64,000 bases of DNA from Laetmonice hystrix (lineage: Eukaryota), in NCBI GenBank assembly GCA_965235115.1, contig OZ249436.1:3660001-3724000 (forward strand), in the 5' to 3' direction. Each line of letters opens with the position of its first letter. Within the stretch, counting starts at the first letter, position 1. This document shows, piece after piece, positions 9,627 through 55,300 of this stretch. The position numbers and the translations under genes are program-made. The notes beneath the pieces were generated by a model that saw only the letters and a program-made list of their open reading frames with translations, did no database searches and was not told where the DNA came from.

Positions 9627-12600
9627 TTAGTGCCTGGCCATCCATGCCTTCAGTGGTCCATGCTCAGGTTTGTACTGCACGTTAACACCATCCGACACCA
9701 AGTGTCCAGATGCACGCATCTTCTCGTACTCTTCCTTCTTCCACTTCGTGAATCCCCACTTGTTGGAAGTGAAGATCTGCAAACAAAATATAAAATCTTA
9801 GCTGCATTTTGTTTGCACAGAAATATCGTGATCTAACAACCATTCTGCCCTACATTATTACCACTTGACTAGGTAGTTGGTATATATCGTGATCTAACAA
9901 CCATTCTGCCCTACATTATTACCACCTGACTAGGTAGATGGTATATATCAAGATCTCCCTACATTATTACCACCCGACTAGGTAGTTGGTATATATTGTG
10001 ATCTCACTACATTATTACCACCTGACTAGGTAGTTGGTATATATCATGATCTAACAACCATTCTGCCCTACATTATTACCACCTGACTAGGTAGTTGGTA
10101 TATATCAAGATCTCCCTACATTATTACCACCCGACTAGGTAGTTGGTATATATTGTGATCTCACTACATTATTACCACCTGACTAGGTAGTTGGTATATA
10201 TCGTGATCTAACAACCATTCTGCCCAACATTATTACCACCTGACTAGGTAGTTGGTATATATCGTGATCTAACAACCATTCTGCCCTACATTATTACCAC
10301 CTGACTAGGTAGTTGGTATATATCGTGATCTAACAACCATTCTGCCCTACATTATTACCACCTGACTAGGTAGTTGGTATATCGTGATCTAACAACCATT
10401 CTGCCCTACGTTATTACCACCTGACTAGGTAGTTGGTATATCGTGATCTAACAACCATTCTGCCCCACATTATTACCACCTGACTAGGTAGTTGGTATAT
10501 ATCGTGATCTAACAACCATTCTGCCCTACATTATTACCACCTGACTAGGTAGTTGGTATATATCGTGATCTAACAACCATTCTGCCCTACATTATTACCA
10601 CCTGACTAGGTAGATGGTATATATCATGATCTCCCTACATTATTACCACCTGACTAGGTAGATGGTATACATTCTTGCCTTAATGTATTGTTATTATAGA
10701 CTATGATGCATGCCAGTGGTCAGGTGGTATAGAAAATTCATCACAAATTAAAATATACTGATATATTCTGTCCCGCTCACCTTCTGCCTGCCAGAGAACT
10801 TGAACTTAGCCCTCCTCAGTGCCTCGATAACATGTTCCACATGGTTTTCACGCGCACGCACAGACATGATGGGCTGTCCAATGTGCACACGTGCTACAGT
10901 TCCCTGTGGCTTTCCAAAAGCACCACGCATCCCTGTCTGCAGCCTGTAAACAGAACAACCAATGAAAGCATCAGACCAAGTTACCAGGTCAACAAAGAGT
11001 AGAGCAAATAACGATTTATAAAAAATGAGATTCAATCCTCCACCTTATACCAGTATCAGTAGATTACAAACATTTTAATGAACACATGAAAAAAGGAATA
11101 GAACAAGCCTCCACAAAAATTCTGCATACCGATCAGCGCCGGCGCACGACAACATTTTGTTGATGCGGATGACATGGAAGGGATGTAGTCTCATTCGTAA
11201 GTGGAAGGCATCTTTTCCGCAGGTCTTTACAAGGTACTTGTTAGCACAAATACGGCCTGCTTCAAGCGCCTCCGACGACAGCTGTTCATACTCATCAGAC
11301 ACCAAGTGCACGCAGAGAGGGAAGTCTTCTACTCGTGCCTTCTTGCGACCCAAGTCAAAGATGCGGATCTTTGCATCTGGGACACCCCTGCAGAACCGCG
11401 ACTTGGGGTAAGGCTTGTTCTTACAGTAGCGGTAGCTGGAAATACAGAACGATACCAAACCTTGAAACACACGTAGAACAACTTCAACAATGGAATAACT
11501 CACATTTTAGTGCTGGGTATCCAGCTTTAGGTCTGTAGACCTCATGAAAATGTCTGTTCATAGTGTGGTTTGCTGGCTCACCCCAGTTCTCATGGGGTTT
11601 GAGAACTGCAGCTATTTATGCTACCATTACTTGATCTGGCACCATCGTTACCTGCCATGTGTGACACAAAACTTCACCAGGCCAAAAAAAAAAAGATGAT
11701 GCCCATTTTTAAAATGTCGTCTCATCCAAGTTGAAATAATTATGGACAGACAGACCCATTTCAACTGCAGCCAGACTTCATCTGGGTGAAGGTTAAACTA
11801 TAATAGAACTACAAAATTGCTCTTAACAACATCTGCAAGACAACTGAATCACAATTTTTAAGCCAAAAGGAACTAACAAAAGCTTCTGACCAGCTATTCA
11901 TTCAAAATTATAGTGCAATGGCACACAACACAAATTCAAAACCTGCAGGGCACTATCAATGCATTCACATGGCTCTCGAGCTAATCATAATCATACCCGA
12001 TATATGCCTAGTGACTAGTTCGTTTCACAGGCCGCACCACCCTGGGGCTCGTTTCACATCCCGCATCGCCCTGGGGCTCGTTTCACATCCCACACCCCCT
12101 GGGGCTCGTTTCACATCCCGCACCGCCCTGGGGCTCATTTCACATCCCGCACCGCCCTGGGGCTCATTTCACATCCCGCACCGCCCTGGGGCTCATTTCA
12201 CATCCCGCACCACCCTGGGGCTCGTTTCACATCCCCCACGACCCTGGGACTCGTTTCACATCCCGCACCGCCCTGGGGCTCGTTTCACATCCCGCACGAC
12301 CCTGGGACTCGTTTCACATCCCGCACGACCCTGGGACTCGTTTCACATCCCGCACCACCCTGGGACTCGTTTCACATCCCGCACCACCCTGGGACTCGTT
12401 TCACATCCCGCACCACCCTGGGACTCGTTTCACATCCCGCACCACCCTGGGACTCGTTTCACATCCCGCACCACCCTGGGACTCGTTTCACATCCCGCAG
12501 CACCCTGGGACTCGTTTCTCATCCCGCACCACCCTGTTCTTACAGTAGCGGTAGCTGGAAATACAGAACGATACCAAACCTTGAAACACACGTAGAACAA

Positions 12601-14804
12601 CTTCAACAATGGAATAACTCACATTTTGGTGCTGGGTATCCAGCTTTAGGTCTGTAGACCTCATGAAAATGTCTGTTCATAGTGTGGTTTGCTGGCTCAC
12701 CCCAGTTCTCATGGGGTTTGAGAACTGCAGCTATTTATGCTACCGTTACTTGATCTGGCACCATCGTTACCTGCCATGTGTGACACAAAACTTCACCAGG
12801 CCAAAAAAAAAAAAGATGATGCCCATTTTTAAAATGTCGTCTCATCCAAGTTGAAATAATTATGGACAGACAGACCCATTTCAACTGCAGCCAGACTTCA
12901 TCTGGGCGAAGGTTAAACTATAATAGAACTACAAAATTGCTCTTAACAACATCTGCAAGACAACTGAATCACAATTTTTAAGCCAAAAGAAACTAACAAA
13001 AGCTTCTGACCAGCTATTCATTCAAAATTATAGTGCAATGGCACACAACACAAATTCAAAACCTGCAGGGCACTATCAATCATAATCATACCCGATATAT
13101 GCCTAGTGACTAGTTCGTTTCACATCCCGCACAACCCTGGGGCTCGTTTCACATCCCGCACCACCCTGGGGCTCATTTCACATCCCGCACCGCCCTGGGG
13201 CCCGTTTTGACATCCCGCACTGCCCTGGGGCTCGTTTTGACATCCCGCACGACCCTGGGGCTCGTTTTGACATCCCGCACCACCCTGGCACTCGTTTCAC
13301 ATCCCACACCACCCTGGGGCTCTTTTCACATCCCGCACCACCCTGGGACTCGTTTCACATCCCGCACCACCCTGGGGCGTTTCACATCCCGCACCACCCT
13401 GGGACTCGTTTCACATCCCGCACCACCCTGGGGCTCGTTTCACATCCCTCACCACCCTGGGGCTCGTTTCACATCCCGCACCACCCTGGGACTCGTTTCA
13501 CAGCCTGCACCACCCTGGGGCTCGTTTCAATAAGAACATTTCCTTGGATATGTCTATACGACACATTTCTGTCAGGCAAGGGGGTCAAGCTAGAAGAAAA
13601 TCTCAGCGTGGGGGAAACTGCCTGTTAGAATTTAGTGCTAGGTGGGCAATTGTGACATGCGAAATGCGCCATGACATGGAAGGAGTATGGTTGCCTTCGT
13701 CAGAAAATTTCTGACATTGTGAGGTTTATAGTGCAGTATCAGTGATTTTGTTGTGTTCAGTACCAAAGCGAAGGCCTTTTAGTTTAACTAGTTAAAGGGA
13801 GTCGTAAAATTCATTTTTTTTGATTTATGGCAGTCTTAGAAACATATGATTCGCATACCTTGGACTCCCAGTAACATCGTGCGAGACTGTTATGGCCCAG
13901 CGACTAGTATTTAGTAAGGAAAATATGCCAAATCTCTCGCAAATACGTAGCTCAGAATTAGCGAGCGGCCCACAGGATATTTGAGTTGGCCGCGGTCGGG
14001 CGATGATGACGCGTGATCACGTGACTTCCGGGTGTACATGCGGTATTTAGGTCAACGCTAGACTAGAGGGAGATTCCCTTCCACACCCGGAAGTCACGTG
14101 ATCACGCGTCATCATCGCCCGACCGCGGCCAACTCAAATATCCTGTGGGCCGCTCGCTAATTCTGAGCTGCGTATTTGCGAGAGATTTGGCATATTTTCC
14201 TTACTAAATACTGGTCGCTGGGCCATAATAGTCTCACATGATGTTACTGGGAGTCCAATGTATGCGAATCATATGTTTCTAAGACTGCCATAAATCGAAA
14301 AAAATGAATTTTACGACTCCCTTTAAAGTTGTGATCTAACGGACCACTTCGCAGAGCGTCCAAGAATCGCTTGGCCAGGGTAACTTGACAACTCAACGGT
14401 TTTCTGCAACACACTGTTTAGAAACAGATCTCTGACTCGGGTCAATTATTGTGTCCATAACTAATATCGGCTGAAACCTAAACTCTACCTCATTCGCCTA
14501 TGCCATTACATAGCCTAGGATTAGTAGGAAAGGCTATGCCTGTGACCTAACCCTGACAGTCTAAGACTAAGACGAGTGACCAGCAATATAACCACATCCG
14601 AGTGACCGCATCAACGTTTACCTTTTTTCCAATTGGGCTTCAATGGTAAAGTGACGTTTTGTGTGAATCTATTTAACTACTGTTGTCAAGTAGGTTATCT
14701 TTTACACTATACAACTCGTGCTTGAGACAGATCGGATTCGAAGTTCCGTTTCCCCCAAATTAGCCATGCTGATGTACTTACCACCGAGCCGGTCTCCGCC
14801 CCAT
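9627..14804 (-). CDS. RPL10: 60S ribosomal protein L10 (uL16), 213 aa, 4 coding exons
   Basis: Coding exons (minus strand): 14782-14804 (MGRRPARC), 11130-11435 ([20 protein letters not shown]...MLSCAGADR), 10781-10943 ([14 protein letters not shown]...FSGRQK), 9627-9776 ([12 protein letters not shown]...[13 protein letters not shown]). Total 642 nt, all GT-AG, phases consistent. AATAAA on minus at 9601-9606. Confidence 0.98.
9823..10669. repeat. About 61-bp tandem array (with shorter variants), about 14 copies, filling most of the last RPL10 intron
   Basis: Unit tatcgtgatctaacaaccattctgccctacattattaccacctgactaggtagttggtata. Confidence 0.95.
11416..13529. repeat. About 1.1-kb tandem duplication in RPL10 intron 2; each copy ends in a 29-30-bp minisatellite
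   Basis: 11416-12030 recurs at 12535-13130 (offset 1119) with a few substitutions and one ~25-bp indel. Minisatellite ctcgtttcacatcccgcaccaccctgggg at about 12020-12534 and 13114-13529. Confidence 0.93.
13792..14326. mobile_element. Near-perfect palindromic MITE, Kolobok/T2-like
   Basis: TTAA|AGGGAGTCGTAAAATTC...GAATTTTACGACTCCCT|TTAA; about 240-bp arms (13796-14035 and 14083-14322) with a 47-nt loop. Confidence 0.88.
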
Positions 14805-18100: not shown

Positions 18101-21100
18101 TTCAAGACATAATCTTTAAAAAGATAAATTGAAATTCTAGGCCTGGCAGAAAGGCTTTATCCAAACTCAAGTAAGTGACCTACCATGGTCTCTACTATCA
18201 AGGACCAGCTCTCCCTATGTAGACCAAAGAATTGTGATTTTTAAATACCTTTTTACAAATAAGTTGATTTGATTTAGGTCAGTCAGTAACATTTTATTCC
18301 CACCACTGACCCTGTTATGACCCTGTTATGTTATTTTATCATAAAATAAGTGCAACTAACATCTACTCAGAGTGTTGTAAGATTACTCATGTAAGATAAC
18401 AGGAGCCTGAGATAGCACTAACCCCCCCCCCCCCCACCCCCACCTGAGAATAAGTACCGGATCAAGTATCAGTGAAGCAGAGACAAGCATAATGAAGTTC
18501 ACAAACTGTACACATAAATATTCCCTTGTCATATATATAAGCCACAAAAAAATGATGCTGAATCCCTCAATTTGTCATTTTTTGTCCATTCAAACTACAG
18601 GCAGGTGACAGAGCTGACTGGCCTGACCAAAGTGGCGTCAAATATTGGTATTCTGGACAACATTCAACACCTGGAAACAGAACCAGGTAAGTGCCATAAT
18701 ACACTACCAAATCTTCCTGGACAACATTCAACACCTGGAAACAGAACCAGGTAAGTGCCATAATACACTACCAAATCTTCCTGGACAACATTCAACACCT
18801 GGAAACAGAACCAGTAAGTGCCATAATACACTACAAAATCCGAGACAACATTCAACACCTGGAAACAGAACCAGGTAAGTGCCATGATACACTACAAAAT
18901 CATGGACAACATTCAACACCTGGAAACAGAACCAGGTAAGTGCCATAATACACTACCAAATCTTCCTAGACAACATTTAATACCTGGAAACAGAACCAGG
19001 TAAGTGTCATAATACACTACCAAATCCTGGAAACATTCAACACCTGGAAACAGAACCAGGTAAGTGCCATAAGACACTACAAAATCCGAGACAACATTCA
19101 ACACCTGGAAACAGAACCAGGTAAGTGCCATGATACACTACAAAATCATGGACAACATTCAACACCTGGAAACAGAACCAGGTAAGTGCCATAATACACT
19201 ACCAAATCTTCCTGGACAACATTTAACACCTGGAAACAGAACCAGGTAAGTGCCATAATACACTACCAAATCCTGGAAACATTCAACACCTGGAAACAGA
19301 ACCAGGTAAGGGCCATAATACACTACCAAATCTTCCTGGACAACATTCAACACCTGGAAACAGAACCAGGTAAGTGCCATAATACACTACCAAATCTTCC
19401 TGGACAACATTCAACACCTGGAAACAGAACCAGGTAAGTGCCATAATACACTACCAAATCTTCCTGGACAACATTCAACACCTGGAAACAGAACCAGGTA
19501 AGTGCCATAATACACTACCAAATCTTCCTGGACAACATTCAACACCTGGAAACAGAACTAGGCAAGTGCCATAATACACTACCAAATCTTTCTGGACAAC
19601 ATTCAACACCTGGAAACAGAACCAGGTAAGTGCCATAATACACTACCAAATCCTGGACAACATTCAACACCTGGAAACAGAACCAGGTAAGTGCCATAAT
19701 ACACTACCAAATCTTCCTGGACAACATTTAACACCTGGAAACAGAACCAGGTAAGTGCCATAATACACTACCAAATCCTGGACAACATTCAACATCTGGA
19801 AACAGAACCAGGTAAGTGCCATAATACACTACCAAATCCTGGACAACATTCAACATCTGGAAACAGAACCAGGTAAGTGCCATAATACACTACCAAATCC
19901 TGGACAACATTCAAAACATGGAAACAGACCCAGGTAAGTGCCATAATACACTATCAAATCTTCCTGGACAACATTCAACACCTGGAAACAGAACCAGGTA
20001 AGTGCCATAATACACTACCAAATCCTGGACAACATTCAACACCTGGAAACAGAACCAGGTAAGTGCCATAATACACTACAAAATCTTCCTGGACAACATT
20101 ATACACAGTGGTGAATATTGCAGTGTTCTGGCAGTACGTGAAGGATTTAGTGATATGAAATAAGTTGTGAATATTGCAGTGTTCTGGCAGTACGTGAAGG
20201 ATTTAGTGATATAAAATAAGTGGTGAATATTGCAGTGTTCTGGCAGTACGTGAAGGATTTAGTGATATGAAATAAGTGGTGAATATTGCAGTGTTCTGGC
20301 AGTACGTGAAGGATTTAGTGATATGAAATAAGTGGTGAATATTGCAGTGTTCTGGCAGTACATGAAGGATTTAGTGATATGAAATAAGTGGTGAATATTG
20401 CAGTGTTCTGGCAGTACGTGAAGGATTTAGTGATATGAAATAAGTGGTGAATATTACAGTGTTCTGGCAGTACGTGAAGGATTTAGTGATATGAAATAAG
20501 TTGTGAATATTGCAGTGTTCTGGCAGTACGTGAAGGAACACTTGAGTAAACACGAGACCCAGCGGTATATGCTGCTTCATCATGTGAGCACTGATGCTGG
20601 TCGAGGACGAGCCTGGCTACGATCAACTCTTAATGAACACTCACTGGAGAAATACATGCACATGGTACTGGAGGATGGTCCTATGCTCAGGTAAATGATA
20701 ACAAATCTGTAAAATGTAATAAAACTAAAGGAACAGTATGATTTAAGTTTGATTGATTACCTCCCAAATTCAAAAACTCATATGAAGTATACTAGTAGGT
20801 ACTGTATATACCCAATAGATCACAGCATCCCCCCCCCCCCCCCCCCGAGTTCCACCTCAAGGCTGGGGGGGGGGGGGTGTGGCCATGATCTATCCATAGT
20901 GAACCCTTCCAGCCCACAGAGCCAGACTCTGGCATAGTTCCCCCACTCCCCACCAGGGGTCACTACACTTGCACAAGGACTTAGTTAATTTCCTATTGCT
21001 GCAATTATATCTGGCATAGTTATTTTTATACATTTTTGTATTGAATACTTCTTAACACTAACCACCAGCATCTTACCATATCCTGCCTTGACACCTGGCT

Positions 21101-24100
21101 CTGTAAGGACAGCAAGTCTGCTCACTTGGTGAGACACCTAGTGGTTATTGTATGAACTAGAATGGTCATTGCATGTGTCCATCTGTCATGGCTTTGAATG
21201 TGGTGTGGGGGGTTTGGGGACAATCCTGCCATACAAAAGGAACATTGATGATTGAATAACCCTCTAAAGTTTCTTCAAAAGATGTTTTGAAAGCAAAGAG
21301 AACTTTCTGGCTATATTGTGACAAGGCATGTTTTGTCCAGTACAGTTAGATGTGGTAAGCTTGGGGAGAGCAGATCAGGGAGGAGCTCAACAATTCCAGG
21401 AAACTTTTTCCCAGACCATGGGGTCCAAATTCCCCTGCGGCTATGTTTGGTGCTGCCATCTATTGGGTATACACAGTAACTGTACTCTGGTTTTTTTATG
21501 AGGACCTTGTTTGAGGACTGGTCATTCCTGAGGGACCAGGAACGATTGAGCATGCTCCCAATGATCAATGGTTTGTTTATTAGGACCTTGTTTGAGGACT
21601 GGTCATTCCTGAGGGACCAGGAACGATCGAGTATGCTCCCAATGATCAATGGTTTGTTTATTAGGACCTTGTTTGAGGACTGGTCATTCCTGAGGGACCA
21701 GGAACGATCGAGTATGCTCCCAATGATCAATGGTTTGTTTATTAGAACCTTGTTTGAGGACTGGTCATTCCTGAGGGACCAGGAACGATCGAGTATGCTC
21801 CCAATGATGGCAGCGGGACTTGGCTCCATTCTCTTCGCTATCAACATTGACAACCCTGATCTCAACACCATAAAGCCAGCGACAGGCCTTGATGCCATTC
21901 TCAGCTCCACACCACCGTCGAGAACATTCGCACCTCGAGCAGAGGAGGAGCCTCGTCCTGTCATTAACACAGACATGTCGCCCAAAGGTATGGACACGGT
22001 TCTCGTGGATATATGGCAGAGATTTTCTGGAGATTGTTAATGTTAATGACAAATTTATGGCTGTTTCAACTTTCGTTAACTTGATGATATGTTTTTTTAT
22101 TGTAGCATGTAATTTGGATGCATTTATCAAAAGATACTTTTATATTTGCCTTGCTTAGATGTTTGTTATGGAATAGATGCAAAAACGTTGGTGTTTTTGA
22201 CAAGAGTTATGGATAAGTTCACCAACAGTTATTGCAATGGATCAGTATTTAAGTTCCTTGTACAGTAGGGTTGTCAACAGTCAGGTTTATGATGTTAACG
22301 CACCACATCAAGCAATCAATAAAACTCTTTCAGCTGAGAGGAGAAAGGAAAGGAAAAAGAAGAAGAAGATAGCACACATTGTTTCATTTGACAATGATGA
22401 CGGGACAAGCTGCAGCACTTCACCCGGGTCATCAGTGACAAGCCCCCAGGTCAAGTCAAGCGGGGTTGATCTCAACTCTCTGCCGACTATCATTGCCAGT
22501 AACACCCCCAGACAAACTGCCGTTGGCTTCAGTCCAGTTGATACAGCTCCTGCGGTACGGCAGTGTGTTGTAACACATGACAATGATGTAATGGTGGCAG
22601 TACCAGTCATGGCAGACACACAGCCTGTGATGAATGGCAGTGAGAGTAATGATATCTTACCGGGTGAAAACATACCAACAGTATCTGAACGAGACCAGCC
22701 GTGCCAAGCTCACTCAAACCTGGATCTAGAGGCCCAACCAGTTGAACAGCCTGAGATAGTTGTAAAACAAACACCTGTAGAAAATGGCCATGTATGTCAA
22801 GATGAAGCTGTGATGACAGGGAGCGCTGATCCATCCTCCCGCGGTGACTTGGAGAGATTGTCAGAGGGAGAGATCAGAAAACTGGAATCGCTGCCATGTA
22901 GTGCTCGAGACCATGAAACACAAACAGATTTACGGGTGTGTGACACTCAGACCACTGATTGTAGATCAAGGTCACCACAAGGTCAACATGAGAAGACCTG
23001 TGATGACAGTACTGAAGGCGAGCTCCGGGAACGGTTCTACAGTGTGAGTGAGGATTACCAAGGTACAAGTTCTGTGACCACTGAGCAAACACAGGATAAT
23101 GTTTCACCAGAAATAGAAAATTCTCTACCAGAGACAGCGTCACCATCTGTGAATATGTTTGAGGTCGGAGCGCCACCTAGTGAGGGTGAGGAGAGTGGAT
23201 CAGTGACAAAGTCATCAAGTGTCATTCCATGGGAACCTGTCACCGACGCTGCGGACAACACAAGTTCACCAGAGAAGTCAAAACACTTAGCTCGCCCAGA
23301 GAGCCTTAAAGGGTTTGAGAACGTTGATCGTTACATGCTGCCACGGAGAGACTCGTTGGACAGTGTCCCATGTAGTGTCCCAGGTGACTCAGAGAAAAGA
23401 GACTTGCTGCGTCAACGTTTAGGTAACTGGGAATCAACAGATAGTGTTGAGGTTCGCTCAATTACAAGTACTTCATCCATTGGTGAACCTGTCAGTTCAC
23501 CGACACTTCAGAAGTCGGCCAGTGAAGGGAAGATTGAACAAGGGTAAGCAATACTTCAACGATAAATTATGAATCTTTTAAAAGTATTGTCACAGATAAT
23601 AATAACTGAGAATTTGCTTTATAATTAAATGCTCAGACTTTCTCAAGGAAGGGGACATGGTGGGGGAGTGAGTCATCATAATGCAAGGCTTAATAAAATT
23701 ATTCTAATAAAATTGGTGAAATAAAGAGGTCTTTTTATTTTGATCCCTCAACTTAAAAAGGTGTTCTATTTGTGTCTATATAACGTCAGTCAAAGGTTGT
23801 AAAGAGTAATATTAACCATGATATATTGAGCAAGATACTTCAATACTTGATGGTCTCTCTTTGTTAGTCATCTGGTACCATACAATAGCCATGTTGGAGC
23901 GTTAACCCCCCTCAGTCCAGAGGGTCAGCCCATTGATGGAGCCTATATGATGCCGCTGGCATGTGCCGCTAGTTCTGAGGACTCGCGATCATGTAAGTAA
24001 CATGCTGTTACTGTAAAGGTGACAATTTGTGAAGTGGGGTCACCATTCAGGATCTATGGGTTAAGTTATTTAGATGACCTTGAGAAATTCTAAAGAGAAA

Positions 24101-27100
24101 TGTTGGTATGAGACTTGTCTTTGGTCAAAAGTGGAGGGACAGGATAATTTTAAGATGTCTTTATTATATGCACTAATATTGCCACCAATTGCAGAGACTC
24201 TTATAGTTATTTTTGACGGATTCCCTAAAACTTATCAGAGATTAATCTATAAAATTTTGTGATATAGTTCTTGATGATTTCTAAAACTTTGTGATAACTT
24301 TGTAGATGATTCGATAGAAGTGCCAAGCTATAATGAAGACACAGACAATGCTGCGTATGCCCTGGCTGTCACACAGCAAGGGTACATGGCAAGGTAGGTC
24401 AAATACTGGGTTCAGTATAATGTTTAAAAGTGTAAATAAAATATCATCTGTCATATTACATTAGGTCCTAACACCTAAAAGCTAAAGGATTTCAAAGTAG
24501 GTGCATTCAATAGACCTTTTATTTATATTGAAATTCCTATGAATTTCTTGTTGTGTCAATGTTTAATATTTGATCGCGTTTTGTTTTTCCCAATTGACAG
24601 TCATGAACTTCATTCAGGAACCGGAGGTCACTTCTCACCAGAAGCTGTAGCTAATGACACTTTGTCTCCAGGTACCTCATGCTCATTTTTCATCTTCTAA
24701 AACTGGGATTTTTAACTTGGGGGCGCAGCGTCTTAGCTAATCCAGACACCGACACAGGGTCAGTTACCCCACTCACAACCAGGGGGTTTTACAGATTCAT
24801 AGAGAAACTCTGGACTTATTCCAGTTCTCTGATATATGTTGTCTTTCTGCAGCATTTAATCAATTTCATAAGGCAGGCAGATTACGTGATAATTTCATTT
24901 TTACCATGGACATTTCTTAATTGTTGTTTACTCTGGTTTCTGGATCTAATTCTAGGTGAACTTAAACAGGCGCTTGTTGCCATGATGCTCCGCAAGGATG
25001 AGTTAGAACGGCTCTGTCATTCACTACAGGTAAAGATTTTTACTTGATTTTCCAGCAGTAGTAATTTCCAGAAACGTTGTTGGCTCCTCCTCCTTAAAGT
25101 ATAAGAAAAGCTTTTTGTTAATGTTCTGATCTGTTTCCTACTGAATTTAATCCATGTGGTATCTTTTGTTTTTGTCCTTGAAGGGCGGCCTTGAGGTTGA
25201 GCATGAAGTCTCAGCTGGTTTACGGATTGAGTTGGAGGAAGTCAAGCGGAACAGCGCTGCACTTGAGGAAAAAGATGCTGAGAAGTTGAAAGCACTTTCA
25301 AAGTAAGTACTGCTTCATGATGCTGGTTTGGATCTAAGGCTATTTGAGAACTGCCTTAAGTGTAAGTTCTGTTCTTTTCCCGTTCAGAGAAAATGAGCTG
25401 CTGAAGCATCAGTTGCGGAAGTATGTGAATGCCGTCCAGATGCTTCGTACCCGCGGTGCCTACACAGACGGTGAGTGAAGTATTGACTGCCGTTTTATTC
25501 CAGTCCTATGTTAACATGGTTGAGTCCTTGTTTGAGGAATCATTGCTCTATTATGTAATTCCCATGAATTATGGGGTAGTGGTGAGAGATAATGTTTTTG
25601 TCAGGTCTTGAGACGGAGGTAGACGTTAGCGTTCAGATCAGGGCAAGTGTTACCACGGGGGATTGATTATTGGAGAATTGGTTTCAGATATCCCGGGGAT
25701 TCATATGGAGGAACCTCAACCTGTTATACCACCACCCAAACCCAGCATTGACTACAGCCATGAGGCCTCGGAATACGAGAAAAAACTTATACAGGTCAGT
25801 CGGTGGGCTTTGTTAAATACAGGGATGAGATTTTTAGGGGCCCTTGAACCTTACAGTTCAAGAAACAGCAGCTTTGGGGGCCTCCCCCCAAAAACGGATC
25901 TGCAGAAAATCCTGAAAGTAAAACTGTGAATGTGTCCCAAGTGACGAGTGCACTGAGTAACCCCCATGCCCCTGGGTACTACCTGCAGTCAGTACTGTAA
26001 GTTTGACCTGTTTGACCTGCAGTCAGTACTGTAAGTTTGACCTGTTTGACCTGCAGTCAGTACTGTTTGACCTGTTTGACCTTGTAGGTGGCCGAGATGC
26101 ATGGTGAGTTGATGGAGTTTAACGAGGTCCTGCACCGTCAGCTGAGTAGTGTTTGACCTGTTTGACCTGTTTGACCTTGTAGGTGGCCGAGATGCATGGT
26201 GAGTTGATGGAGTTTAACGAGGTCCTGCACCGTCAGCTGAGTAGTGTTTGACCTGTTTGACCTGTTTGACCTTGTAGGTGGCCGAGATGCACGGTGAGTT
26301 GATGGAGTTTAACGAGGTCCTGCACCGTCAGTTGAGCAGTAAGGAGATAACAATTAGACGACTCAAACAAGAACTCACAGACCTTCGTGGACCCGTAAGT
26401 TTGTCTACTTATAACTTATACTTATGAACCTTTAACTGTTTATTTCCATGGACAAGTGGGGCTGTCAAACATCTCACCACCCCGTCATACCATATTGTCC
26501 CGTCATTGAATGCCAATTTGTGCTAGAGTTTAATATGATTAAGGTTTCTTTTCTTTTGGTAATACAAATATAATTCTATTTGTGTTTTGACCAGCTGCCC
26601 GCTGAGTTCCAAGGTTCCGACGACAGCACCAGTGTGTCCTCAGATATTGATGTGTAAGTGTCATGGGTCTGTACTAAACGTTCAGTGTGCCAGGCAGCTG
26701 ATCTTAAACAGATTTTGCACCAAATTTTGTCACTTCTGAGGTAAAAAGTCAGCAATATCAAACTAATATTAAAAGTGTAGAGATTTGCTAATAGTTTTTA
26801 TGAAGCTTTTATGTATTTTTGTTCCTCATACTTTCATATAACTGTGATACATTTATCTCTACAGAGCCTCGATGAACCGCCCCTTAGTCAATATTTGGAT
26901 TCCTTCAGCCTTTCTCCGAGGAACAACTTCAGATGCTTATCATATTTATCAGGTAAATGTCCAGAACATTCCTGACCCGTGTAATATTGCTGTGATCTCT
27001 TAACAGATGATATACAGTAGGTGTCTATATGTTATAGGTTTATGTTCGCATCCGAGATGAGGAATGGAACGTCTACCGCCGCTACGCAGAATTTCATGAA

Positions 27101-29657
27101 CTTCACTCCAAGCTTAGGAAGAAATATCCCATTGTCAACACGTATGAATTTCCTCAGAAAAAGACATTTGGAAACAGGGTAAGTAGACACAGTTACTTAT
27201 ATCCCGGTGAGTGAAACCTCAAGGACAGACCGTCTGTGGTTGAAGAAGTACACTATTGAATCCAATGAATGGGACACGATTATTATAGGTATCCAGTAAA
27301 CCTCAAGGGCAGACCGTCTGTGGTTGAAGAAGTACAATATTGAATCCAATGAATGGGCCACGCTTATTATAGGTATCCAGTGACAGACCGTGGTTGTCTG
27401 AAGAAGTACAATATTGAATCCAATGAATGGGACACGATTATTATAGGTATCCAGTGACAGACCGTGGTTGTCTGAAGAAGTACAATATTGAATCCAACGA
27501 ATGGGACACGATTATTATAGGTATCCAGTGACAGACCGTGGTTGTCTGAAGAAGTACAATATTGAATCCAATGAATGGGACACAATTATTATAGGTATCC
27601 AGTGACAGACCGTGGTTGTCTGAAGAAGTACAATATTGAATCTAATGAATGGGACACGATTATTATAGGTATCCAGTAAACCTCAAGGACAGACCGTCTG
27701 TGGTTGAAGAAGTACAATATTGAATCCAATGAATGGGACACAATTATTATAGGCATCCTGTGACAGACCGTGGTTGTCTGAAGAAGTACAATATTGAATC
27801 TAATGAATGGCACACAATTATTATAGGTATCCAGTGACAGACCGTGGTTGTCTGAAGAAGTACAATATTGAATCCAATGAATGGGACACAATTATTATAG
27901 GTATCCAGTGACAGACCGTGGTTGTCTGAAGAAGTACAATATTGAATCCAATGAATGGGACACAATTATTATAGGTATCCAGTGACAGACCGTGGTTGTC
28001 TGAAGAAGTACAATATTGAATCCAATGAATGGCACACGATTATTATAGGTATCCAGTTTTATAAAAAGCAGGCTGAGGCAAATATTAATTTATAAGATGT
28101 CTTCATTCTTAACTGAAATGTTTCCTTAAGGGTGTAATTTCTAAAGTTAGTTCAGTGTGAGCTGCAGATATTGAGATCATCAAGGCTGTAGACAGTTGTT
28201 GGATAATTGTGCTGCTACCTTTAATTCAGGACCCCAAGTTTGTGGAGGAGCGGCGACGTAAACTACAGATCTACCTACGTCAGGTGATCAACCTGCTCCT
28301 TCAGACTAACGTGGATTTTATTGCCAATGTCAGCCGCGAGAGACTTCTCCAGGTAGCGCCGTTCTTTGGGTGAGAGATCTGTGTTAATGTCTTTATTTGA
28401 ACAGTTAACTTGTTTTTTTTTTATAATTGAAACAACTGCTGTTTGTTTTAATTTACTGGTAGTTTTATCAAGTTTTGAAAGGTGAAATAAAATAGTAGTA
28501 AGAGAGACAACGGGAAGTAAGGAATTTCATTGTTATAGAGATATACTTGCACTTATTATGTGTGTCATATAATAATGTTATACATCCTCATGTCTTCATA
28601 CATCCTACACACATGTTCCTGTGATATATTCCAATAGACAAGAAATAATTTTATCACGACAGTTAGTAATAGCAATCATGGTAACACTGCCATAGACTTA
28701 CTTACAACAGAGCAGGTTCCTGGCATTTAACATACAATTAAACATAAGCTCTTTGATAAATTTATCTTAAACAGATCTGAGTAACTGTAAGTACCTTCAG
28801 ATGTGAATTCATGCATAGGTACTAAAGTTATGCATACATTCATCCCTGAACCTTAGCAAAGATCTGGACACGTTTTTTTATTCTTTTGAAATTAAAGTGA
28901 CGATATTGAGAAATGTTCATAGATCTGTCCTCCAGTCGATACCCGTGTCTCTACTAGCAAACATTTGGTGTGAAGTTGCAACAGGTATTCTTCTATTCAT
29001 TTGTATGAAAAAAACAATGGCAGAAAGAAAGAAAGGTAATAAGGTAATACACCCATATCAGTAAATGATTTATGGTCTTTTGTTCAAATCAGCAAAGGAA
29101 TTGGTTTAAGTTTATCGTTATTTGGATTTTGGTGGAAATTGAATCTGGTAATAAGACCCCAACAGATTGCTTGCTTGCTCGTACTAAGTCCTAGATATTG
29201 GTAAGAGCTTCCATTGCCTTATTATCAAGCTAGTGCTAAGTTCAGGTGACACGTAGGAGGATATAAACATGGCAGCTTAAGGAAAAGAAGTATCCAAGAA
29301 ATATAAGAAATCTGGGATTCGTTCTCAGTGATGAGAATAAAGTTTTGTAGAATAAAAATAATTCTGAGAAGGAAAATCATATGCAGGAATTGAAGATTTA
29401 CATGTGACGTTGGATTAGAAATATCCTAAATCTATCAACCTTAGTTTAAACTACCAGGTAGTATTATAGACTTACTGGTATATTACTGGTATGTATTAAG
29501 GGTGATTGTGATACTGACCACATACCTTATAATTCACAGTGAGGTGCCTGCTGAAGACAAGAAAAATAGACGAAAATCTTCAAAAAGGAAAGGGGGAGGT
29601 CGAGTACCCCCAGCTACACCAGCTCAGACCCAGGCCCAGCATTACACGGGGTTGTGA
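15196..29657 (+). CDS. SNX29: Sorting nexin-29 (RUN domain, coiled coil, PX domain), about 1083 aa, 21 coding exons
   Basis: Exons: 15196-15202, 17179-17246, 17500-17552, 17805-17885, 18601-18686, 20516-20690, 21746-21987, 22334-23543, 23868-23992, 24306-24393, 24601-24671, 24956-25029, 25184-25302, 25388-25470, 25688-25794, 26278-26394, 26595-26653, 26865-26952, 27038-27178, 28230-28369, 29540-29657. Sum 3252 nt, open frame, all GT-AG. Motifs: LLDAVKQCQVRFGG, GRGRAWLRSTLNEHSLEKY (RUN), MLPMMAAGLGSILFAINIDN, VAEMHGELMEFNE, IWIPSAFLRG, WNVYRRYAEF, FVEERR (PX). Confidence 0.95.
15926..16406. mobile_element. Degenerate hAT-like MITE in SNX29 intron 1
   Basis: GGGGTGGAAATT...AATTTCCACCCCTG inverted termini, same terminus family as 52127-52386; no clear target duplication. 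Confidence 0.5.
18654..20100 (+). repeat. 60-64-bp tandem array, about 23 copies: SNX29 exon-5 end and 5' splice site
   Basis: Unit ctggacaacattcaacacctggaaacagaaccag|gtaagtgccataatacactaccaaatcttc; the first copy is the coding exon end (LDNIQHLETEP). Confidence 0.97.
20107..20537 (+). repeat. 56-bp tandem array, 8 copies: 3' splice site and SNX29 exon-6 start
   Basis: Unit tttagtgatatgaaataagtggtgaatattgcag|tgttctggcagtacgtgaagga; AG ends at 20123, 20179 ... 20515; only the last copy continues as the exon. Confidence 0.97.
21501..21808 (+). repeat. 81-bp tandem array, 4 copies: 3' splice site and SNX29 exon-7 start
   Basis: Unit caatggtttgtttattag|gaccttgtttgaggactggtcattcctgagggaccaggaacgatcgagtatgctcccaatgat; AG ends at 21502, 21583, 21664, 21745. 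Confidence 0.96.
25981..26340 (+). repeat. 95-bp tandem array, 3 copies (plus gtttgacct sub-repeats): 3' splice site and SNX29 exon-16 start
   Basis: gtttgaccttgtag|gtggccgagatgcaYggtgagttgatggagtttaacgaggtcctgcaccgtcag; exon-like starts at 26088, 26183, 26278. Confidence 0.95.
27213..28057. repeat. 74-84-bp tandem array, about 11 copies, in SNX29 intron 19
   Basis: Unit gacagaccgtggttgtctgaagaagtacaatattgaatccaatgaatgggacacgattattataggtatccagt. Confidence 0.95.
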
Positions 29658-30490: not shown

Positions 30491-31340
30491 ACTTCACCTT
30501 CCTGTAAAGCCTGTCTGTTAGGAGATATAATGTAGCAGGCTTGTCTTGGGTTGACAGACCCACAAAGAATGTTGTTGATATCTTTGTTGAATCCACTGTG
30601 ATTATAAATCATGTTACAATGTTATTTATATTTTTCTCATTGACGAATTCTCTATGATGCTTCTTGGAGGTTTACCAATGAAAATGTTCTACGCATGTCA
30701 TAGATATTGAGAAATCCTGTCTGGAGCCAATGGTTTCTAAACCGAGCAGTGTTTCTGTGAAATTCTCTCATGATTTGGTACAGTAACATTCAGTGATGAA
30801 GACGTGTAAGACCTCGCTGTACATTTTAAATTAGATTCGTGACTCCAAGTTCAGATCTGCCGTATGTATTGCATCAAATTGTTTTCTCTCCGTGCATGGT
30901 TTAACTGTTTGATCAACAGTGTAATGGTATTTTTTGTTATTGGCTGTGCAGTTACCTCAAATCACAGGAATTGAAAAAAGAGGAATTATTTTGAGCCGGG
31001 GGAGGGGGGAGGGAGGATGGATGGTAAGAACCCAGACATGGAAGAGAAACCGTAAAATATCTGAATACAGGACTTGTATTTAAAACAAACATGGGTTCAT
31101 AAATTCTTGGCAACTTCTGTTCGATCTCCTGTGCTCTGTTGGAAGATGCTCATGTACCAAACTGACAGGGACTGGCCTTAAGAATTGGAGTACAAATATA
31201 GAAGCTACGTGCATTATAAGGATGTGAAATACATTTTTTCTCGAGATAATGTGGTTGTTTTCCCCAGTCATGTGAAATTAACCCATGATGGGGTTGTGGA
31301 ATGTAAAGTGATGTGAAAGTTCCTGAGATGTGAGAGAAAC

Positions 31341-32152
31341 TGTCTGTTGATCATGTTTTTGTAGGGCTCTCAGTACGAAGCACAAGACACCAAAGTGAGA
31401 GTTCCTCTCACGTGGCTGTCTGTTGATCATGTTTCTGTAGGGCTCTCAGTATGAAGCACAAGACACAAAAAGTGAGAGTTCCTCTCACGTGGCTGTCTGT
31501 TGATCATGTTTCTGTAGGGCTCTCAGTATGAAGCACAAGACACAAAAAGTGAGAGTTCCTCTCACGTGGCTGTCTGTTGATGTTTTTGTAGGGCTCTCAG
31601 TACGAAGCACAAGACACAAAAAGTGAGAGTTCCTCTCACGTGGCTGTCTGTTGATCATGTTTCTGTAGGGCTCTCAGTATGAAGCACAAGACACAAAAAG
31701 TGAGAGTTCCTCTCACGTGGCTGTCTGTTGATGTTTCTGTAGGGCTCTCAGTACGAAGCACAAGACACAAAAAGTGAGAGTTCCTCTCACGTGGCTGTCT
31801 GTTGATCATGTTTCTGTAGGGCTCTCAGTACGAAGCACAAGACACAAAAAGTGAGAGTTCCTCTCACGTGGCTGTCTGTTGATCATGTTTCTGTAGGGCT
31901 CTCAGTACGAAGCACAAGACACAAAAAGTGAGAGTTCCTCTCACGTGGCTGTCTTTTGATGTTTCTTTAGGGCTCTCTGTACGAAGCACAAGACACAAAA
32001 AGTGAGAGTTCCTCTCACATGGCTGTCTGTTGATGTTTCTGTAGGGCTCTCTGTACGAAGCACAAGACACAAAAAGTGAGAGTTCCTCTCACATGTTTGT
32101 CTGTTGATGTTTCTGTAGAGCTCTCTGTACGAAGCACAAGACACAAAAAGTG
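31341..32152. repeat. 74-77-bp tandem array, about 11 copies, each with a small hairpin
   Basis: Unit ctgtctgttgatcatgtttctgtagggctctcagtacgaagcacaagacacaaaaaGTGAGAGttcCTCTCACgtgg. Confidence 0.95.
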
Positions 32153-33781
32153 ATAACAGAAGCACAACATTTGTATTTGAAAATTTAACAGGTTTTGGGG
32201 AGACAGGAGAGCGAACATATCAGGTATGGTGTAAGTGTATTTTTGTAGGGCTAAGTTGTACATTTATGGAATCAGTACGTTAGAAAATAGAGTTACGAGG
32301 TACGGTAAGTTTAAAATGTTGGTTCGCAACACGCGGTAAAGGATCCTACGGGATCCTAAGTAAATTAGTCCATAGTATTCTATCAAACCAAAGCTAGTGT
32401 GAATGATTATGGTGGGAGGACTGAGTGACCTTGACATTGAGAGATGACAGGAAGTCAAAAGTCGTCGTGTGACTTTGAACTGAAATCTTAACACCCATTT
32501 TTAGAAATCCAATATTCTCCTGGACCTCCTGCCGCTTGGGTATTACATGGGGGTTAACATGGGTAGATTGTACACAAGTAACAATTCAGCCATATTACAG
32601 TGTATTACAGTAAATGGCACTGTTTCTATGTAATGGAGGAAAAAAGAGTGTGTCTCTGCATATTAAGTGCATTTTATTAGTACACGATATAGAGCAATAT
32701 ATCAAAATCATGTTTGGAATTTTGCTATAATTATTTGAGCTTTAAGTTTGAAGTGCCCGTGGTGCACTGAGCAGCTACAGCAGTGTTAAAGTGTCCGGTT
32801 GTGTGCAATATGACGTGTATACCTACACGCGTCCTGTAGTTAGAGAGTTGTGGCACTAACCACGTGGATGGTCACAAAGGTGGTGTAGAACGACGGTACA
32901 TGTAGTTGTATGTGTAAAGTTCTCTATATTCATTGTTCAGTAAGTCAGAACGTGTGGGTACTGAGTATATACAAAGTATACCGATAACATTGAATGAGGA
33001 AAAAATAATTGTCTAATTACTTCTGAAACAATGAACAGAACATTGACCTGGAAGCCTTAGACGATTGTATTCAATGGTTGGGTACCCAGTGTCCAAAAAC
33101 TGGGCAAGTTGGAAGTGCAGCCAAGAAGAGTACGGGGGGGTGTCAATTTTTAAAGTGATTTAAATCAATTCACTCTACATCAATGGCTTTTAAAGATTTC
33201 TTTTAAAAAAAATCTACTCTAACAAACTAACAAAATCTAATACGGTACAGTTGAGTCTCGTTATAAAGAGTCCCGTTACAAAATAATCCCATTCCCAGAG
33301 AATAAAGTTATTCTCTGGAACGGAAATTCTGTCTGTTTCCACAGCAATGAGAACCCTGAGACTACCCCCCCCCCCCCCCCACGTCCGCCCCTCTAAAACC
33401 AAAGTGGCCATTGAAAAAATTTCTATGGTTATAACGAATTTTCACATATAGACCTGAGGAATATTTTCCCCGCATCCCAACTTCTCCTTTAATACCGGCC
33501 TCGACTGTATTGGTACATTTAAAGAAATCGATTTCCATCTTTAAATTGGTGACGTGGTGAGTGTCTCCGTGTGTCTGATATTTGTATATCAGGGGGTGTT
33601 TTGTCAACCGGCCGTGCGTGATTCACGGGTATCCTAAGTTGCCGGTAGTTGGTGCTAAAGTTGAAAGATTCTGGAGTTAAATCAATGTATTCGACATATA
33701 TCATTAAATAACTAATTAGAACAGGCAGGTATGAACATACGTGATTTCTGACAGCAGTGGGGGTGAAATAGTTGAATTAAA

Positions 33782-52386: not shown

Positions 52387-55300
52387 CAACCCTGGCAGAC
52401 CTCTCCCCCCCCCCCCCCCCCCCGGGCGCTTGCCATGACCAGCCAACTAACAGCCAGCTTTGCAGACCCTCACACGTCACTGTCAGCGCCAGTGGCAGTG
52501 GGACCCCAGCTGGGCTGCGGCGCCTCCCCGTACCCCCCCCCCCCCCCACCCCACCCCATCGGCCTCCCTGGCCACGGACACGGCTCCTCCCCTTGCCCCT
52601 TCGCCCTTGCTCTGGGGCTGGCCAACCAACCCTGGCATACCTCTAGCCTCTGGCCACTGGATGGCCAGTGAACCCCCAGCTGGATGGCCAGAGGCAGAGG
52701 GGGTGGGGTTACCTAGCTAACCAGTCCACCAGCTAGCCTAGCTAACCAGGCCTAGCCAGTGAACTCTGGTCGCTGGGCGGCCCGTCCTGGGGCCTGGCCA
52801 GCCAACCCTGGCAGACCCCCCCCCCCCCCCTCCCGGGGCCTTGCCATGACCAGCCAACTAACAGCCAGCTTTGCAGACCCTCTCCCCCTAACGATGTCCC
52901 TGCCTGTTTGTTCCCGCAGTACGATGTCTGGGTTGGGGGGGGGGGGGGGGGTTGAACGGTTGGCCTGTCTTTGCCTGCCTTGGATTCTCCTGGTCATCCA
53001 TGACTCACACGTGGTGTCAGCACAAGCGGCAGTGGGACCTCTGCGGCGCCTCCCCCTCCCCCCATCGCCTCCCTGGCGACAGCCCTTGCCCTGGGCCTGG
53101 CGGCAGTGGCCAGCCAACTCTGGCAGAGCCCCCCCCCCTGCCTTCCTGGCCGGCTCTTCCCTGGGCCTGGCCACCCTACCCTGGGGGGCGTTTCTCTTCA
53201 TGTCGTTAGCTTGTCCTATCGTTAACTCATTTTCATTTTCAATGGGGATTTTAACGCACGACAGCATAACGAAAGATGAGAAACGCACCCCAGGTTAGCT
53301 TGGCAACCCCCCCCCCCAACCACCACCCTGAGCCTGGCCAGCCAACCCTGTCCCTGGCTAGCTTGGCAGATACCCACACTGCCTCCCTGGCCTTTCCCCA
53401 GGCCAGCCAACCCTGGCAACCTTGACGGAACCCCAGCCTCCCGGCCCTTACCCAGGCCATCTTAACAGACCCGCCCCCCCCCCTCCCAGGCCCTTGGCAT
53501 GGCCAGCCAACCCTGGCTAACTTGACAGGCCCTCTTCCCAGCTCACACGTTAAGCAGGGCCCACACAGACGCGAAAATCCTTAGGCGGGTGGAAAAAATT
53601 TATCCGTGCACGGAAATTGCACTTCCGCATGAAGCCTACATCCGCACCAGTGTGTTTGTGTCATGTTCAAAAAAAAATATGGACCTATGCGGAATCACGT
53701 GGCATATCTAAATATCTAAAACATTAGATATTTCCGCCTGTCGCGCACGGAAATTTTGTCGCGAAGCCATGAAATTGAATGGGGGCCTGGAGGCCCTCCC
53801 CCGGAAAGAAAAAGAAAATTACAGTGCCAAATACGTGATATAGACCAGCCTTTAGGCCTATAATAGGCCTATAAGCCTAGACAATGGGACATTTAAAATT
53901 AAAAAATCTTTTGTAAAAATATGAAAAGGGCACTTGGGGGAGTGAAAAGGGCACTAGGGGCATACTCATGATACTGAACCCCCCCACACACACACCCACA
54001 CACACACCGGGATAAAGTCACTCCCACCAATCGGTGTGGGCACTATTTCCGTCCGCCTTAAAAAATCATTCGTGTTCTGTGTGGGCTACTTCTGCGCCCC
54101 TTCACGCAGGCGAAAATGGTTGGCAAATTCTTGTGCGGATGTATTAAGGTCATGTGCTACACTAAATCAAACCCATATCTATACTATGTATTTTAATAGA
54201 AGGAACAACTTTTTCTGATTATAAAAATGTATAAATATCCATATGTCGCCATGCTAACTTTTGTGTGGGATGTCTATAGAAAATCCATGTTTGGCTACTT
54301 TGAGTGCTTCTACACTCATCTGGGGGCCCTTGAAGGTAAATTCAAGGCTTTGCACAGGCATACATTTCCTATAAACCCAGGCTTATTACAAAAAAAATAA
54401 GCATGGTGACATATAGTTATCTACACGTTTTTAAACTGAAAAACACTTGTTCTTTACTATTAAAATACATTTTAATGGATTTGTGTTTATACAATACATC
54501 AATTGGTTACTGCGGCGAGATTTGGCATGAGATTTGAGAGGTGTAGCACAAGACCTTAAATTCCCTCGCACGCGTGGAAATTTCGTCTGCGTCAGTGTGG
54601 CCCCTGCTTTGCGAAGTGTCAGTGCGAGCTGCAGTGAGACCTCGCAGCTGCGGCGCCCCCCCCCCCCCCCCATCCCACTCGGCCTCCCTGGACACGGCCC
54701 TTGCCCTAGGCCTGGTCAGCCAACTCTGGCAGACTCCCCCCCCCCCCCCCCGCCTTCCTGGCCGGCCTACCCTGGTTAGCTTGGTAGACCCCCCGGCCCC
54801 TCCCCAAAGCCTCCTTGGCCAGCCCTTGCCCTGAGCCTGGCCAGCCAACCCTGTCCCTGGCTAGCTTGGCAGATACCCCGACTGCCTCCCTGGCCTTTCT
54901 TCAGGCCAGCCAACCCTGGCGACCTTGGCAGACCCCCGGGCCTCCTTGCCACTTACCCTGGGCAACCAAGCCTGCATGGCTTGGCAGATGCCCAGCCTCC
55001 CTTGCCTTTACCAAGGCCAGCTTAACAGACCCCTCCCCTCCCTGGCCCTTGTCATGGCCAGCCAACGCTGGTTTTACTAAAGGTCCTTGACGTCGTCGAT
55101 AATTTAACATAGCTAGGTGAATGGTCGTTAGGTTGTTGTTTCCGACCTAGCAACCCATTCTCTTCTATGTTAAATTATCAACATCGTTATTATCGACTGT
55201 TTAGCCCCTGGCTAGCTTGACAGACCCTCTTCCCAGCCCCCAGCCCCGAACGGCGTCCCTGCCTCCCTAGTCTGCCTCAGTGCCTGTTTGTTCCTGCAGC

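Follow-up and report, generated by a model that had tools for sequence, protein, structure and literature searches.

Abutting arrays of splice donors and splice acceptors fill intron 5 of SNX29

Results

An SNX29 intron made of two tandem arrays

The 64,000-nt stretch of Laetmonice hystrix DNA analysed here (contig OZ249436.1; hereafter the window) carries the gene SNX29 on its plus strand, and intron 5 of this gene (18687-20515) is tandem array over 1823 of its 1829 nt. A preliminary description of this DNA, whose exon numbering is kept here, had recognised two abutting arrays filling the intron, about 23 splice donors and then 8 splice acceptors, and both Tandem Repeats Finder (TRF) and a unit-by-unit reading confirm this arrangement.

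The assignment of the gene to SNX29, proposed in the same description, is borne out by its domains and its named homologues. Pfam recognises a RUN domain (PF02759, E 5.4e-09) on the exon at 20516-20690 and a PX domain (E 9e-12) on the exon at 27038-27179. A protein search with the 58-amino-acid (aa) peptide of exon 6 returned 24 proteins at 56-73% identity and none above 73%, and every one of them that bears a descriptive name is a sorting nexin-29. Their hosts are echinoderms, an oyster, Capitella, spiders and cnidarians, and none of the 24 is from Branchiostoma. In a search for close relatives with the 448-aa exon 8, 7998 candidates of 785-2240 aa were scored and none matched at E <= 0.001. 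Eight of the SNX29 homologues were used in tblastn to place about 15 exons between 17181 and 28370, all of which have open frames, and several of the other introns are short (85-253 nt). Exon 5 was aligned by one of the eight proteins only, that of Capitella, with residues 64-95 on 18590-18685; residues 95-148 of the same protein (P0009) fall on 20512-20673, and joining the first donor of intron 5 to its last acceptor gives an alignment that is gapless at residue 95. The exon 6 peptide matches this locus alone in the 627-Mb assembly, and the PX exon matches this locus and, weakly, one place elsewhere. SNX29 is therefore single copy in the assembly.

Features of intron 5 and its flanking exons, in window coordinates (a slash in a motif marks the splice junction):

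18601..18686, plus strand: SNX29 exon 5, placed by tblastn with residues 64-95 of Capitella SNX29 (P0009), behind the acceptor ...CTACAG/GCA
within 18601..18686, plus strand: 34 nt at the 3' end of exon 5, which supply the exonic portion of the donor unit
18687..20515, plus strand: intron 5, 1829 nt, set by the sole frame-keeping pair of sites and by residue 95 of P0009, at which both exons join gaplessly
18653..20106, plus strand: donor-junction minisatellite, 23 units of 64, 61 or 60 nt and an 18-nt partial unit (TRF, unit split and unit alignment)
18687 (authentic), 18751, 18814, 18875, 18936, 19000, 19060, 19121, 19182, 19246, 19306, 19370, 19434, 19498, 19562 (GC), 19626, 19687, 19751, 19812, 19873, 19934, 19998 and 20059, plus strand: G of the donor GT
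20107..20537, plus strand: acceptor-junction minisatellite, 7.7 units of 56 nt (TRF)
20123, 20179, 20235, 20291, 20347, 20403, 20459 and 20515 (authentic), plus strand: G of the acceptor AG
20516..20690, plus strand: SNX29 exon 6, with the RUN domain (Pfam PF02759, E 5.4e-09); the acceptor unit takes its exonic portion from the initial 22 nt

TRF delimits the donor array as 18653-20100, with a period of 64 nt, 23.2 copies and 93% matches, and the acceptor array as 20107-20537, with a period of 56 nt, 7.7 copies and 97% matches. Split at a fixed anchor, the donor array falls into 23 units of 64, 61 or 60 nt, the shortest length occurring in three of them. Each unit joins the final 34 nt of exon 5 (CTGGACAAC...GAACCAG) to the initial 30 nt of intron 5 (GTAAGTGCC...ATCTTC). 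GT is found in 22 of the 23 units and a perfect CAG/GTAAGT in 20, namely the authentic donor at 18687 and 19 of the 22 decoys. The deviants are unit 3, which has lost one G (CCA/GTAAGT), unit 11 (CAG/GTAAGG) and unit 15 (TAG/GCAAGT). Unit alignment shows that D2 and D12-D14 equal D1, the unit of the authentic donor, across the full 64 nt. The 56-nt acceptor unit likewise combines the final 34 nt of intron 5 with the initial 22 nt of exon 6, and AG is kept in all eight units (TTGCAG/TG in seven, TTACAG/TG in one), the decoys being identical to the authentic acceptor across at least 37 nt. This repeat identity excludes chance. The preliminary description had placed about 7 unique bases between the arrays; a gap is indeed nearly absent, but TRF makes it 6 nt and a reading of the partial units about 0-2 nt.

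One open reading among 184 site pairings

Enumeration of all 23 x 8 = 184 donor-acceptor pairings leaves a single one open to the end of exon 6 at 20690, which joins donor 18687 to the acceptor that ends at 20515; each of the remaining 183 meets a stop. The expectation that a correct mRNA needs the outermost pair out of some 180 combinations thus holds, and this pair alone yields the conserved protein. Donor 1 joined to any of the seven decoy acceptors reads into ...VFWQY(V/M)KDLVI and then a stop, so that the stop peptide given in the preliminary description (VFWQYVKDLVI) is recovered in all seven cases, allowing for a V/M variant. Decoy donors read into ...PGNRTR and a stop or, for donor 2, into frame-shifted exon 6. 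That the donor units shift the frame is correct for those of 61 and 64 nt and incorrect for the three of 60 nt, which make no difference because the first inserted unit already carries a stop (...PGNRTR).

Local origin and growth of the arrays

The donor unit is unique to this array, inside which all 12 of its matches in the 627-Mb assembly lie. Its exon part encodes conserved SNX29 residues (tblastn), and as the exon parts are conserved coding sequence, copying ran from the gene into the array. Unit alignment shows that the block D3-D6 recurs as D7-D10, and that D1, D2 and D12-D14 form one set of identical units and D18 and D19 another pair. A duplicated four-unit block together with identical units points to growth by unequal exchange of several units at a time, with homogenisation.

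In the 22 decoys, the 9-nt donor motif shows 4 changes over 198 alignment cells, compared with 33 in the 1144 other cells, neither an excess nor a deficit, although the counts were compared without a statistical test, the units being non-independent. The counts give no sign of either inactivation or preservation of the decoys, which fits neutrality.

The innermost donor and acceptor (20059-20123) are 65 nt apart, as the preliminary description had reported in suggesting that the ancestral intron might survive between them. The distance stands, whereas the suggestion is ruled out by the composition of the segment, in which the 30-nt intron part of unit 23 is followed by an 18-nt partial exon part and the final 17 nt of the 34-nt intron part of an acceptor unit. 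It is a joint of two truncated units, left most simply by deletion or array turnover. The ancestral length is consequently not readable from this joint, nor from this genome alone, and the sequence contained in the units puts the ancestral intron at no less than the 30 + 34 nt present in them.

Copy number in reads

Collapse of the arrays in raw reads would, according to the preliminary description, have spoken against it. A search for sequencing runs containing this DNA returned three, all DNA-like and from one sample, and no RNA run. A 94-nt contig of the 64-nt unit has a word depth of 658 against 52-61 in the unique flanks (X1), a ratio of 11-12.6, where the assembly predicts a multiplicity of 10.5 (mean 31-mer multiplicity). 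For an 81-nt array further along the gene the ratio is 3.0, with 2.6 predicted by the assembly. The arrays are multi-copy in the reads, in a way that fits about the assembled number. The k-mer contigs end at 18682 and resume at 20508, and neither array is bridged by a contig from any of the three runs; the bins at 18808-20204 that lack contig cover are a property of k-mer contigs.

Further junction arrays in SNX29 and their frequency

Two more arrays in SNX29 repeat a splice acceptor together with the start of its exon:

21488..21808, plus strand: second acceptor-junction array, four 81-nt units (15 nt of intron and 66 nt of exon 7) that keep the frame and contain no stop (TRF, tblastn)
26063..26340, plus strand: third acceptor-junction array, 2.9 units of 95 nt (33 nt of intron and 62 nt of exon) (tandem-repeat scan, tblastn)

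In the first of these, 81 nt make 27 codons and an open frame runs through all copies (open reading frame (ORF) 21480-22040), so that use of an upstream copy would add 27, 54 or 81 in-frame residues (...RTLFEDWSFLRDQERSSMLPMINGLFI...) without a stop. In the second, the acceptor is repeated together with the 62 nt that open the exon at 26278-26394, and tblastn matches the decoy copies of this array at 26088-26144 and 26183-26239. Directly before it lies an intronic array of 3.1 copies of 34 nt (25981-26082), each unit with CTGCAG and ACT/GTAAGT. A further array of ten 74-nt copies with a higher-order period of 380 nt (27224-28057) is wholly contained in the intron between two PX exons; it begins about 45 nt past the donor at 27180 and has TATAG/GTATCC in each unit but no true junction.

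Junction-straddling arrays make up four of the six in SNX29, against 0.30 expected from random seeding in an array-collapsed gene, a difference that is not significant (P = 0.069) and whose calculation uses approximate lengths for the collapsed introns. Where an intron measures about 65-100 nt, a 56-64 nt unit that arises in it or next to it will almost inevitably include a junction. Across the genome there is no enrichment of three perfect CAGGTAAGT at 40-70 nt spacing, with 377 matches compared with 335 in a backwards control, a crude count in which matches overlap and array length is counted. Perfect-donor arrays are by this comparison no commoner than chance among the many minisatellites of this genome, and junctions are not specially targeted.

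Discussion

Minisatellites whose head-to-tail units span an exon-intron boundary are called mirages in amphioxus, where Canestro et al. are said to have described one in Adh3 in 2002. Others are reported in the globins BflGb6 and BflGb9 (PMC3087553) and in PGBD5 and troponin C (PMC3902484), and these two reports describe splicing as undisturbed by the globin and PGBD5 mirages. The arrays in SNX29 intron 5 share with them boundary-spanning copies that include the splice signal, at a 5' or a 3' boundary, with one terminal copy as the working junction; a minisatellite-sized unit, of 56-64 bp here and 10-160 bp in amphioxus; a local, non-dispersed origin; and within-array traces of unequal exchange and homogenisation. 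They differ in that both junctions of one intron are amplified, leaving an intron of nothing but decoys, and in their copy numbers of 23 and 8, compared with 3-6 in BflGb6. The host, too, is not a lancelet, as none of the 24 homologues is from Branchiostoma and the best identity is 73%; Capitella, the closest match overall, weakly suggests an annelid-like animal. Splicing and length polymorphism have been demonstrated for the amphioxus cases.

The donor side has a second precedent in the 37-bp variable number tandem repeat (VNTR) in intron 7 of human F7. According to the report by Borensztajn et al. (2006, PMC1557585), splicing there takes the most upstream donor alone out of 5-9 identical ones, selection is an oriented search from 5' to 3', and only pseudo-sites that had been made perfectly consensus attracted some splicing. 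As in F7, the first unit in SNX29 spans the exon-intron boundary, so that the authentic donor is followed by pseudo-donors identical to it in sequence. The scale is different, with 5-9 moderate donors and one acceptor in F7 and 23 donors, 20 of them perfect, and 8 acceptors here. Given that only perfect-consensus pseudo-sites competed in F7, fidelity is less certain in SNX29 intron 5, where the reading frame suggests that the most upstream donor would be used. The SNX29 intron 5 arrays are mirage minisatellites, and the donor side is a VNTR of the F7 type; the locus is an extreme case of a known kind. What is new is the amplification of both junctions of a single intron, the copy number and strength of the decoys, and the non-lancelet host. 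A limited literature search returned the F7 and amphioxus papers only and no genome-wide survey of such arrays. The arrays also recall the model of Rogers, in which introns are gained by tandem duplication of an AGGT-containing segment (discussed in PMC3087553). Extra splice sites are in both cases made from existing gene sequence by tandem duplication, but no new intron or exon has arisen in SNX29; an existing intron has been lengthened, perhaps from less than 100 nt to 1829 nt.

We consider it likely that intron 5 holds two locally born mirage minisatellites which are a neutral by-product of repeat instability in a genome with short introns and many minisatellites. A segment of about 64 nt across the junction of exon 5 and intron 5, and one of 56 nt across the junction of intron 5 and exon 6, would each have been duplicated in tandem, and both would then have expanded by unequal exchange or replication slippage until the intron was full. 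All extra copies lie between the first donor and the last acceptor and would be excised with the intron if the outermost pair is joined. Expansion would then be nearly neutral, and duplications would be tolerated that inside an exon would not be. Productive SNX29 mRNA would join donor 18687 to the acceptor ending at 20515, as coding conservation suggests. Donor 18687 may be selected because it is the first 5' splice site to follow exon 5, in the manner shown by experiment for the human F7 VNTR; at the 3' end, the acceptor copy that is joined to the body of exon 6 and the donor at 20691 may be favoured. Use of a decoy would introduce a premature stop, and its product would probably be cleared by nonsense-mediated decay. 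Leakage, if there is any, is predicted to be greater on the acceptor side. It is site usage and the absence of function in the arrays that we infer here.

Several points weigh against a neutral expansion that is spliced faithfully from the outermost pair. In experiments in vitro with duplicated strong 5' splice sites, the one closest to the acceptor is favoured; here this would be the wrong site. The 19 perfect decoy donors are of the class that drew some splicing in F7. Nor does exon definition alone separate donors 1-4, which would give exons of 86, 150, 213 and 274 nt, or acceptors 8-6, with exons of 175, 231 and 287 nt. At the exon 6 acceptor the pyrimidine fraction is 0.41, the lowest of 14 acceptors of the gene (mean 0.64), and every site of the arrays is optimal, which speaks against easy fidelity. 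The reads come from three runs of one sample, are DNA-like and probably derive from the assembled sample, so they are not independent support, and the depth ratio of X3, at about 19-28, lies above the assembly prediction.

The strongest rival to neutral expansion is that decoys are used appreciably, and that the arrays act as a dial for SNX29 expression in which copy number sets the fraction of transcripts lost to a stop and decay. The anatomy makes this possible, given the premature stop in all 183 wrong pairings, the 19 decoy donors of perfect consensus, the identity of decoy and authentic acceptors over at least 37 nt and the weakness of the authentic exon 6 acceptor, and perfect-consensus pseudo-sites did shift some splicing in F7 (PMC1557585). 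However, 183 stops in 183 pairings are expected by chance from units that either are not a multiple of three or bear a stop, the decoys are without a sign of selection (4 of 198 motif cells changed, compared with 33 of 1144 others), and the genome-wide frequency of such arrays is close to that of the backwards control. The published mirages and F7 are, moreover, described without aberrant mRNA (PMC3087553, PMC3902484, PMC1557585). On balance we regard an expression dial as improbable.

Removal of the intron in steps is a still more doubtful reading. Inner pairs, for example the innermost one at 65 nt, would be spliced first and the outer sites re-spliced around them (nested, inside-out splicing), or the AG/GT of each donor unit would serve as a recursive site. 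Recursive or nested splicing of long introns is known from Drosophila ratchet points, vertebrate RS-exons and the nested introns of dystrophin, and recursive sites are conserved and have a strong pyrimidine tract before the AG. It follows from the anatomy that a splice of donor i to acceptor j would spare donors 1 to i-1 and acceptors j+1 to 8, leaving the correct mRNA within reach, and the mostly short other introns of the gene (several of 85-253 nt) suggest pairing across short introns; the innermost pair is 65 nt apart. Too early a use of donor 1 or acceptor 8 would, on the other hand, be a dead end with a stop. Recursive removal through AG/GT had been considered conceivable in the preliminary description, and AG/GTAAGT is indeed present at each donor unit, so that removal in several steps is possible in principle as in the known cases. 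These sites are, in contrast, young copies of an exon end and lack the pyrimidine tract: the pyrimidine fraction in the 17 nt before the donor-unit AG/GT (-20 to -4) is 0.35, against a mean of 0.64 over 14 SNX29 acceptors. The donor units thus do not combine, as recursive sites do, a 3' splice site that has a pyrimidine tract with an adjoining 5' splice site, a weak test in that the authentic exon 6 acceptor itself reaches only 0.41. The two arrays have no special complementarity to one another that could assist stepwise removal (z = 0.03, with 145 of 300 shuffles as good).

Pairing of array with array was also considered as a means of masking the decoys or joining the outer sites, and is rejected by a duplex energy of -40.9 kcal/mol, compared with -41.1 +/- 6.0 kcal/mol in the 300 shuffles. 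The folding energy of the whole intron has z = -4.2 against 20 shuffles; shuffling destroys the repeats, and this value is not counted as evidence of structure.

That assembly has created the arrays, or their copy numbers, is very unlikely: contigs of the three runs, all from one sample, break at 18682 and 20508 and span neither array, but depth agrees with prediction for both the 64-nt unit in X1 (11-12.6 and 10.5) and the 81-nt array (3.0 and 2.6), and ordered unit variants and a duplicated four-unit block are not expected from collapse or artefact. A decaying, untranscribed SNX29 copy in which decoys are irrelevant is the least credible reading of all, as this is the only SNX29 in the assembly, the exons mapped with eight homologues have open frames, and its RUN and PX domains are recognisable.

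The value of SNX29 intron 5 is as a natural substrate for tests of splice-site pairing. If the outermost pair is used faithfully, intron 5 repeats the F7 experiment in an extreme natural form, with 22 decoy donors, of which 19 are perfect, and 7 identical decoy acceptors, in a host with otherwise short introns, for which recognition across the intron is probable. Such a locus could reveal whether the choice of first donor and last acceptor holds when every site is optimal, and to what extent mis-splicing is hidden by nonsense-mediated decay. The locus strengthens the view that mirages arise generally as a by-product of genomes with short introns and many minisatellites, and are not a peculiarity of lancelets; a short intron can grow about 20-fold without foreign DNA, and junction arrays are traps for gene prediction. 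A more far-reaching outcome would be that a pre-mRNA bearing 20 perfect-consensus donors and 8 identical acceptors within 1.8 kb yields one product by a strict outermost-pair rule or obligatory inside-out re-splicing, neither of which is predicted by splice-site models for sites that saturate U1, or a setting of SNX29 output by decoy copy number through nonsense-mediated decay. We give this group of outcomes only a slim chance, but if any of them were true, double-ended arrays would be natural reporters of splice pairing whose copy number varies across a lineage.

Other repeats and genes in the window and assembly

Tandem arrays with a score of at least 80 cover 15,312 of the 64,000 nt of the window (24%). 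Outside SNX29, an array of eleven 87-nt copies at 1-961, cut by the window start, has a junction-like unit (CTGTAG...CTGATG/GTAGGA), and one of 10.8 copies of 74-77 nt at 31340-32153 has units (TTTCTGTAG/GGC...AAAAA/GTGAGA) that resemble a complete mini-exon together with both signals. At 56168-58846 lies the window's largest array, 48.9 copies of a G+C-rich 55-nt unit (CCCTGGCCCTTGCCCTGGCCAGCC...), with a related 54-nt array at 53352-53459.

The region 11075-13530 contains a ribosomal protein L10 exon on the minus strand (about 11126-11422; Pfam Ribosomal_L16, E 1.1e-17). Beside it lies a local duplication of about 1.1 kb with near-identical ORFs at 11484-11615 and 12603-12734, each copy holding a 29-nt array (12020-12536 and 13115-13529).

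Elsewhere in the assembly, every unit of a dispersed 20-nt satellite (CAGGTAAGTGGGG[A/G]ATAGGA) contains a donor of perfect consensus; the satellite occurs at several sites on at least two chromosomes, for example G000:C1:250457-250743, C1:43974881-43975207, C1:46703677-46703985 and C2:18731545. Other perfect-donor arrays have units of 52-75 nt, such as those at C1:2320168-2321376 and C2:2518207-2518883.

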